Positions 1-890 of a stretch of 890 bases of DNA are shown piece after piece. The notes under the pieces were generated by a model. The model was not told the origin of the DNA, did not search any database, and saw only the letters and a program-made list of their open reading frames with translations. The position numbers and the translations under genes are program-made. Numbering within the stretch: the first letter of the stretch is position 1; every line of letters begins with the position of its first letter. The stretch is from a phage, in sequence record AB841360.1, one strand, 5' to 3'.

Positions 1-794
1 AGCTTCCCGCCTACCGTTACAGTTCTGCCATCTGCTAACTGAACTGTACGCTCATTATTCCCAACCGCCCCTTTCATTGATGCTCTCTGCATCGATAAAT
101 CCTGACCGCGCATCGTGATGTTCTGGCCTCGTGCTGTTAGCGCCTCGCCAGCCTGATTGCTGCGGATTGTCTCTGCCAGTCTGCCTCGGTCAATCTCACG
201 ACCAACGATTCTGTCTTGTGCCTGAAAATATTGTTCTGGACCAAGTGCAGCCATTCCAAGGTGATCAACAAACTCTGTGAAACCTTGTGGATTTTGCTGA
301 TACATTTTCGCCACATCCAGAGGGTCTACTCCGGCACGAGTAAGCTCAGATGAGTTGTTCTGCAACCATGACATCATGGCTTCTGGAGATGAAGCTGCGA
401 GTCTGGCACTTGCTGCCAGTGTACCGACAGTGGAACGCTGGTCTTCATCGACAAATTTCATGCCGTTTCTTACAGCGTCAAACTGCTCAGGATACTGTGA
501 TGCCAGCTTTCGCATTGCATCGCGGTCACCAGATGTATATGCATCAGCATAAGCCTGCTGAAACTCTTGCTGCCGCTTCTGCTGATCCATCTGCTTATAC
601 ATATCCATGACAGATGAAATGCCCTGCAAAGCCTGCAAGCCAACGTTATTACGTCCTGAGCGCTCCATTTCGTTGTTCTGGCGAATATAGGCCAACGCCT
701 CACTTACATCACTTGCCTTTGGCGCATTTGAGTTTTGCCCACCGATACCAGCAAGAAAACCGCCTGAGTTGATTCCTTGTTGCCAAGTAGCCAT
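1..794 (-). CDS. Hypothetical Gln/Ala/Met-rich protein, N-terminal 264 aa; 3' end lies beyond the window start. Possibly a phage structural or internal virion protein, but function is unassigned.
   Basis: Hand translation of the minus strand from ATG (complement of 792..794) gives 264 sense codons with no stop down to position 3. None of the plus-strand triplets at positions 3,6,...,792 is tta, cta or tca. A stop-free run this long is expected by chance at roughly 10^-5 to 10^-6 in random ~50% GC sequence. Translation begins MATWQQGINSGGFLAGIGGQNSNAPKASDVSEALAYIRQNNEMERSGRNNVGLQALQGISSVMDMYKQMDQQKRQQEFQQAYADAYTSGDRDAMRKLASQYPEQFDAVRNGMKFVDEDQRS... and ends in-window ...GQDLSMQRASMKGAVGNNERTVQLADGRTVTVGGK. 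The start is preceded by an SD-like AGGTG with a 5-nt spacer. By hand count there are about 28 Gln and no Cys. Product assignment is inference only; I recognise no catalytic motif. Confidence 0.85.
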   Translation of the reverse strand, partial: MATWQQGINSGGFLAGIGGQNSNAPKASDVSEALAYIRQNNEMERSGRNNVGLQALQGISSVMDMYKQMDQQKRQQEFQQAYADAYTSGDRDAMRKLASQYPEQFDAVRNGMKFVDEDQRSTVGTLAASARLAASSPEAMMSWLQNNSSELTRAGVDPLDVAKMYQQNPQGFTEFVDHLGMAALGPEQYFQAQDRIVGREIDRGRLAETIRSNQAGEALTARGQNITMRGQDLSMQRASMKGAVGNNERTVQLADGRTVTVGGK

Positions 795-798
795 ATTC

Positions 799-805
799 CC
801 ACCTT
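799..805 (-). promoter_or_regulatory. Shine-Dalgarno-like ribosome-binding site for the downstream minus-strand gene, overlapping the upstream stop codon (translational coupling).
   Basis: Minus-strand sequence reads 5'-TTT TAA GGTGGG AAT ATG-3'. AGGTG (complement of 800..804) matches the AGGUG portion of the canonical SD and sits 5 nt before the ATG at 794..792. The upstream TAA (806..804) overlaps the SD. Confidence 0.65.
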
Positions 806-890
806 AAAACAATGATCCAAGACCACCGATAATACCGCCACCAATAGCGCCAACAGCTGTACCTATTCCAGGCACCACAGAACCAATCAT
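804..890 (-). CDS. C-terminal end of an upstream ORF (or a complete 28-aa peptide if the ATG at 890..888 is the true start) with a glycine-zipper hydrophobic tail; 5' extent unknown.
   Basis: Minus-strand translation from 890 gives MIGSVVPGIGTAVGAIGGGIIGGLGSLF followed by TAA (complement of 804..806). Gly at residues 10, 14, 18 and 22 forms a GxxxGxxxGxxxG zipper in an otherwise hydrophobic stretch. The frame is open to the right window edge, so the ATG at 890..888 may be an internal Met of a longer protein. Confidence 0.55.
   Translation of the reverse strand: MIGSVVPGIGTAVGAIGGGIIGGLGSLF

Follow-up and report, generated by a model that had tools for sequence, protein, structure and literature searches.

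The window, that is, the whole stretch of 890 bases analysed here (49.6% G+C), carries on its minus strand (794..1) what is almost certainly the N-terminal 58% of an ejection protein of the gp20 family, located in the late operon of a P22-like prophage of Escherichia coli, with a function carried over from a homologue of about 48-52% identity. The prophage is of the Lederbergvirus type, a temperate P22-like podovirus that has integrated in E. coli. The gene, its family, its context and its mechanism have already been described, and the identical protein is public under the correct name; the biological weight of the finding is very little, this being an ordinary known gene.

The frame runs on the minus strand from 794 to 3 with 264 sense codons. 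It opens with an ATG at 794-792 and is free of stops up to the left edge, bases 2-1 being a partial codon. When the mononucleotides of the window were shuffled 20,000 times, a single shuffle gave an open stretch of at least 264 codons in any frame, and the longest open stretch among the remaining frames was 88 codons. The earlier note had taken this long frame leaving the left edge as the main gene, and had remarked that it was absent from the ORF track as it was unbounded in the window. Both points held: the listing took in solely ORFs closed inside the window, and the 264-codon frame was missing because it exits the window. In a short window the main gene can stay hidden from a track of this kind, which in this case also made a fake ORF of 28 residues, which is discussed below.

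The 264-residue product was compared with profile collections. It matched Pfam PF16928 (Inj_translocase, "DNA/protein translocase of phage P22 injectosome") with E=3.8e-74 and 249.5 bits, against a gathering cutoff of 29.7, residues 12-227 corresponding to positions 1-217 of the 218 in the model. Two PHROGs carrying the label 'released from the phage upon host infection' were also matched, PHROG 917 with E=1.1e-127 and PHROG 2534 with E=1.1e-111 to 1e-112, while NCBIfam held no model for the gp20 family. By tblastn, 147 phage records were matched; gene 20 of P22 showed 47.7% identity over residues 1-264 (E=8e-71; 52% in the MAFFT alignment) and gene 12 of Sf6 showed 68.3% over residues 1-240 (E=1e-98; range 65-68%). 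The matches obtained by megablast of the window against phage records were confined to P22-like phages of Escherichia, Shigella and Salmonella, and the matched genes, genes 11 and 12 of Sf6 among them, are annotated as DNA transfer, DNA ejection or injection proteins.

The matches to PF16928 and PHROG 917 bear out the ejection-type virion protein that the earlier note had put forward, and the profile search which it had proposed was the one that gave the confident gp20-family match. The same note had left the family as unassigned and possibly poorly characterised. Neither statement can be kept, considering the E values of 3.8e-74 for PF16928 and 1e-127 for PHROG 917 and the fact that P22 gp20 has behind it 50 years of genetics and, since 2026, an in situ cryo-EM structure.

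It was also observed that the naming of the gp20 family in GenBank is inconsistent. The family appears as 'capsid scaffolding protein' in phiv205-1, as 'hypothetical protein' in Louie and as 'acyltransferase' in several entries of E. coli and Salmonella (proteins P0054 and P0061), the records with inconsistent names being MN340231.1, PQ850616.1 and MW790496.1. With names that disagree and no NCBIfam model, the family may go on being marked as unknown by guesses from composition.

Extension of the gene and its neighbourhood

A large protein search retrieved P0001, a protein of 453 residues from E. coli which is 100% identical to the product over all 264 residues, and which is named 'DNA transfer protein / phage DNA ejection protein [Escherichia coli]' in NCBI and UniRef. 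At least 24 contigs, drawn from NCBI, ENA and Logan assemblies, carry its sequence (for example, DAZBEW010000016.1 and DABAWH010000020.1). Four E. coli contigs (L088-L091) matched the window at 889 of its 890 bases, and their lone difference, at position 882, was synonymous. Through these contigs the frame was extended to the left and the flanking genes were inspected, both of which the earlier note had proposed; the frame reached 453 residues, and capsid, portal, tail and terminase genes of P22 type were found around it. The window itself holds 264 of the ~453 codons, and the C-terminal domain and gene 16 were read in the near-identical contigs.

The order of genes in the four contigs was small and large terminase, portal (PF16510), scaffold, coat (PF11651), gp4 (PF11650), gp10 (PF11134), tail needle (PF16532), gp14 (PF11039), gp7 (PF25688), gp20 (PF16928), gp16 (PF26808), an immI-like region (Arc, antirepressor), tailspike and integrase. 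Phage Louie, P22, Sf6 and one E. coli prophage have the same order in their annotation. In L088 the end of the gp20 homologue and the start of the gp16 homologue overlap in a junction of the ATGA type. The gp16 homologue of L088 (11362-13227) carried PF26808 (Phage_P22_gp16) in the precomputed table and had no match at E<=0.001 in the local Pfam copy, a discrepancy that is probably due to a difference between Pfam versions. In the related E. coli prophage FDAARGOS_1251, sieA (superinfection exclusion protein A) adjoins gene 16 (L004 3860-4354), and the equivalent place in L088-L091 is taken by a P63C / Arc / antirepressor region. HNH endonuclease genes were seen inserted in the virion modules on the opposite strand, between scaffold and coat in phage Louie (L001 15326-15853) and upstream of the tailspike in L088-L091 (L088 16529-16987).

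Immediately upstream, at 804..890 on the minus strand, there are the last 28 codons and the stop of the homologue of gene 7 of P22 and gene 11 of Sf6, which encodes the ejection protein gp7 and is cut by the right edge of the window. The 28 residues at 890-807, MIGSVVPGIGTAVGAIGGGIIGGLGSLF, were 100% identical to the C-terminus of the 'DNA ejection protein' of phage Louie, a gp7 homologue, and this allele is the one found in Louie and in 29 of 84 related loci. The segment is hydrophobic and of the glycine-zipper kind, gave a weak match to a Gly-zipper profile and ends in GSLF, a motif present throughout the family. In L088 the full homologue has 224 residues and matched PF25688 (P22_gp7) with E=3.9e-89. 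The listed 28-residue ORF at 804-890(-) is an artefact of the window edge and not a separate small gene, its apparent start being an internal Met which by chance is the first complete codon inside the window. The glycine zipper carries a 4-residue GGGI insertion when compared with gp7 of P22 and gp11 of Sf6.

The junction between the two genes lies at 795..806 on the minus strand, where the TAA of the gene 7 homologue (806-804) is followed by a spacer of 9 nt and the ATG at 794-792. A Shine-Dalgarno-like AAGGTGG (805-799) overlaps the stop of gene 7 and ends 4 nt before the ATG, and the gp7 and gp20 homologues are read in the same frame. Of the 84 related loci, 42 have a gap of 9 nt and 39 have one of 12 nt. 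The closest E. coli prophages from complete genomes have a TTG start after GGAGG and the gap of 12 nt (L004 7589-7606).

Relatives with a complete ORF (n=86) measured 431-490 residues. Some match to the window, annotated 'phage DNA ejection protein', was present in 1104 of 5426 complete E. coli genomes, and 152 genomes covered at least 80% of the window. No match above ~91-93% nucleotide identity was found in the phage, complete E. coli, IMG/VR and GTDB-representative collections; the GTDB species representatives contributed three relatives with 67-87% identity. Taking into account that P22-like prophage fragments are so common, with a small share of the matched genomes covering most of the window, and that the window stops inside the gene, so that its integrity has to be read beyond the window, the gene might be a decaying remnant of a defective prophage, in which the gp20 homologue is no longer expressed or functional. 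We regard this as very unlikely, since the 264 codons are stop-free with the start codon and the ribosome-binding site intact, the 889/890 contigs hold the full 453-residue gene in a complete-looking virion module that goes from the terminase to the tailspike and integrase, and the identical protein sequence recurs on at least 24 contigs.

A mosaic allele with a junction at 654-660

The window was tiled against 87 related loci. Every base was matched somewhere, and each tile of 60 nt was 97-100% identical to some locus, save the tile spanning nt 654-660. Positions 660-890 were 98-100% identical to the type of phage Louie and positions 240-654 were of the FDAARGOS_1251 type. The switch at 654-660 (codons 45-47) was sharp, with the last Louie-type mismatch at 654 and the first FDAARGOS_1251-type mismatch at 660; more allele switches were located near nt 240 and 150. 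The type of gp7 C-terminus present in the window occurred in 29 loci and the type of its gp20 membrane helix in 39, and the two were found together in none of 84 loci. A 41-mer across the junction was absent from IMG/VR and from the JGI metagenomes, and none of the complete E. coli genomes exceeded 90% identity across it.

A switch as sharp as this one, a pairing of gp7 and gp20 types that occurs in 0 of the 84 loci first fetched and a junction missing from the metagenomes and from complete genomes are what could be expected if the window were chimeric, with two different P22-like prophages fused by the assembly at about nt 654-660. However, the same 264 residues form part of a 453-residue protein on at least 24 independent contigs (NCBI, ENA and Logan), the four contigs that were checked match 889 of 890 nt across the junction, and mosaicism within gene 20 has been described as natural in P22-like phages (PMC10461980). 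The chimera was rejected on the recurrence of the identical allele, and its probability is negligible. Because the exact allele is present on at least 24 contigs, the allele of the window is a natural circulating recombinant. Gene 20 has been described as freely swapping modules within the gene, which has been put down to subunits that are extended and pack side by side (PMC10461980).

The junction (residues 45-47) falls where, in P22 gp20, the segment in the gp7* lumen (1-47) gives way to the outer-membrane helix. The recombinant, present on at least 24 E. coli contigs, pairs a Louie-type gp7 hairpin, the one with the GGGI insertion, with a gp20 membrane helix of another lineage, and the C-terminal hairpin of gp7 and the membrane helix of gp20 pack together in the outer-membrane pore. 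That this pairing is functionally relevant seems to us improbable. If it were, the stability of the pore or its sensitivity to exclusion systems such as SieA, for example, could be changed, and the allele would serve as a natural test of how well the gp7-gp20 membrane interface tolerates the exchange of modules.

Composition, anatomy and the channel mechanism of P22

The composition of the 264-residue product was Gln 28/264 (10.6%), Ala 11.7%, Met 5.3% and no Cys, and the run MDQQKRQQEFQQ corresponds to residues 69-80 of the gp20-family product. These counts agree with the earlier note, which had described a cysteine-free protein rich in Ala and Met, with about 10% Gln and a Q-dense run, and which was right as well in seeing no enzymatic motif and probably right in expecting a helical protein. 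It had also offered a tape-measure-type identity. A tape-measure or another extended helical protein of the tail or virion, in place of an ejection protein, would be in line with the Gln/Ala-rich, Cys-free composition and with the predicted helical fold, and there were weak matches to tape-measure PHROGs (E ~0.05), solely with the 28-residue glycine-rich peptide of the neighbouring gene. Nevertheless, the match to the gp20 family is specific and full-length, no tape-measure family of the Pfam and PHROG profiles matched the 264-residue protein, and the context is that of a short-tailed P22-like phage, which has a tailspike and a tail needle but no genes for a tail tube or a tape measure. Family matches and gene context together rule out the tape-measure identity, and we give this alternative practically no weight against that of a gp20-family ejection protein.

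The Rfam scan of the window gave no match at E<=1, the scans for terminators and repeats found none, and two promoter-like sites were counted where 1.0±1.2 are expected by chance. Short ORFs of the plus strand do appear in the mechanical ORF list, but that one of them (for example 350-610, 86 residues) is the true gene and the long minus-strand frame incidental is extremely improbable, since all of them have fewer than 90 residues and lie wholly within the strongly conserved gp20 frame, no Rfam family, terminator or repeat accompanies them, promoter-like sites are at chance level on both strands, and annotated relatives have no plus-strand gene at the same place.

The anatomy of the gp20-family product was traced by alignment with P22 gp20, which has been described in situ by cryo-EM in a 2026 preprint as a dodecamer ~32 nm long (bioRxiv 10.64898/2026.09.03.749273). 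The alignment was free of gaps over columns 1-100. Residues 1-47 (654..794, minus strand) are the equivalent of the segment which in P22 lies inside the lumen of the gp7* extracellular channel and forms H-bonds through Q6, S10, N21, N23 and D29 (bioRxiv 10.64898/2026.09.03.749273); all five of these residues are identical in the window. Residues 48-67 (594..653, minus strand) correspond to the outer-membrane helix, formed in P22 with V51, L53, L56, L59, V62, I65 and Y66; twelve of these helices, together with 24 from the V-shaped C-terminus of gp7, make the 36 helices of the P22 outer-membrane pore (bioRxiv 10.64898/2026.09.03.749273). At positions 51, 53, 56, 59, 62, 65 and 66 the window reads V L L I V M Y and P22 reads V L L L V I Y, with five identical residues and two conservative changes.

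Residues 68-184 (243..593, minus strand) align with PP1 of P22 (68-185), the seven-helix bundle under the outer membrane, and residues 185-243 (66..242, minus strand) with PP2 (186-255), the 12-helix barrel across the periplasm, of which the window has a short form (bioRxiv 10.64898/2026.09.03.749273). Residues 244-264 and the 2-base partial codon (1..65, minus strand) are the start of PP3, which in P22 (256-435) is the plinth on the cytoplasmic membrane and the presumed docking place of gp16 (bioRxiv 10.64898/2026.09.03.749273). An 11-residue insert, AATARRGQDLA (P22 gp20 236-246), is present in P22 and in about half of the IMG/VR relatives, and it looks as if the adjacent RGQDxS motif of the PP2 barrel helix had been duplicated. 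The window lacks this insert after residue 235 (nt ~90), so the length of the periplasmic barrel may vary between alleles.

A single-sequence AlphaFold2 model, made with no alignment, was all-helical, with a mean pLDDT of 63 and values of 70-85 over residues 70-200, the confidence being low elsewhere. It placed helices at 91-100, 102-112, 117-133, 137-146, 148-153, 158-167 and 169-184 with pLDDT 70-85, besides a helix at 50-88, of low confidence before residue 70, and a long helix at 186-237 of low pLDDT. The predicted layout would agree with PP1 and PP2 of P22, which is not strong evidence by itself. Foldseek of this model against the PDB gave nothing at E<=0.001, only generic helical bundles at E>1. 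Searches of PDB chains with the fragment (phmmer) and with a family profile of 38 sequences (hmmsearch) gave no match better than E=0.54. As the searched copy of the PDB has no entry for the gp20 family, the P22 preprint is the sole near-atomic description.

In P22, the internal virion proteins gp7, gp20 and gp16 are released after adsorption and before the DNA, and all three are essential for DNA delivery and K+ efflux (bioRxiv 10.64898/2026.09.03.749273, PMC10461980). gp20 has been described as ejected, essential and channel-forming (PMC8954989, PMC10461980), and it works solely in cis (bioRxiv 10.64898/2026.09.03.749273, PMC10461980). Packaging in the virion, ejection and the trans-periplasmic channel are established for P22 and partly for Sf6, and the detailed mechanism of the channel comes from one 2026 preprint (bioRxiv 10.64898/2026.09.03.749273). 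The exclusion protein SieA, of prophage origin, acts according to published work on gp16 and gp20 of incoming P22-like phages; the escape mutations in gp20 fall at residues 338-350, outside the window (bioRxiv 10.64898/2026.09.03.749273, PMC10461980).

By homology to P22, the gp20-family product would be a non-enzymatic structural subunit of a channel for DNA delivery, and from P22 we infer as well the packaging, the ejection, the stoichiometry and the channel formation of the allele in the window. A few dozen copies would be packaged in the lumen of the portal and tail of the virion. After adsorption and the release of the tail needle, gp7* would be ejected and would assemble on the tail hub into an extracellular channel, a dodecamer. 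It would be followed by twelve copies of gp20, their first ~47 residues lining the gp7* lumen and their helix at ~48-67 joining 24 helices of gp7 in the outer-membrane pore, so that gp20 would stabilise the gp7* pore in that membrane. Residues ~68-184 would then build a helical chamber beneath the outer membrane; from ~185 onwards, the long helix would contribute to a 12-helix barrel running through the peptidoglycan and the periplasm, which gp20 alone would span. The C-terminal domain, outside the window, would form the plinth on the inner membrane, and gp16 would complete the conduit.

Comparison with known systems

The P0001 gene of E. coli, with a protein 100% identical over 264 residues and DNA identical at 889 of 890 positions, is effectively the same gene; its contigs have a gp7 homologue upstream and a gp16 homologue downstream. 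The product of the gene of Escherichia phage Louie (CDS0013, 453 residues, 'hypothetical protein') is 79% identical overall. The C-terminus of gp7, residues 1-45 of gp20 and the C-terminal part from ~200 are identical or nearly so in Louie, whereas residues ~46-200 belong to another allele type, with 63-82% nucleotide identity to the window.

P22 gp20 (471 residues, NP_059637.1) is the type member of PF16928 and, like the gene in the window, it sits between genes 7 and 16. With 47.7-52% identity, it has in common with the window the residues in contact with gp7*, the hydrophobic membrane helix and probably, going by the predicted helices, the layout of PP1 and PP2. About half of the residues differ between the two, mostly in PP1; the window is without AATARRGQDLA after residue 235 and without two single-residue inserts, and the full-length relative of the window has 453 residues against the 471 of P22 gp20.

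Sf6 gp12 (431 residues) belongs to this family too and its gene order agrees, with 65-68% identity over residues 1-240. From ~residue 240 the divergence is complete, and Sf6 has a different C-terminal module. Purified Sf6 gp12 forms in vitro a decameric tube of 15 nm (PMC8954989, PMC10461980), and this decamer is probably non-physiological according to the in situ study of P22 (bioRxiv 10.64898/2026.09.03.749273).

T7 gp15 (PDB 7K5C), the periplasmic tunnel protein of the T7 ejectosome, has been proposed as a functional counterpart: it is an internal virion protein which, once ejected, makes up the stretch of the DNA conduit in the periplasm, and its gene lies between those of the ejection proteins of the outer membrane and of the inner membrane (PMC8954989). 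No homology to it was detected by sequence, by the 38-member profile (PDB chains, E<0.5) or by fold search. T7 gp15 has 747 residues and forms a hexameric tunnel after ejection (PMC8954989), in contrast to the dodecameric gp20 of P22, and what links it to the gp20 family is function and gene order alone.
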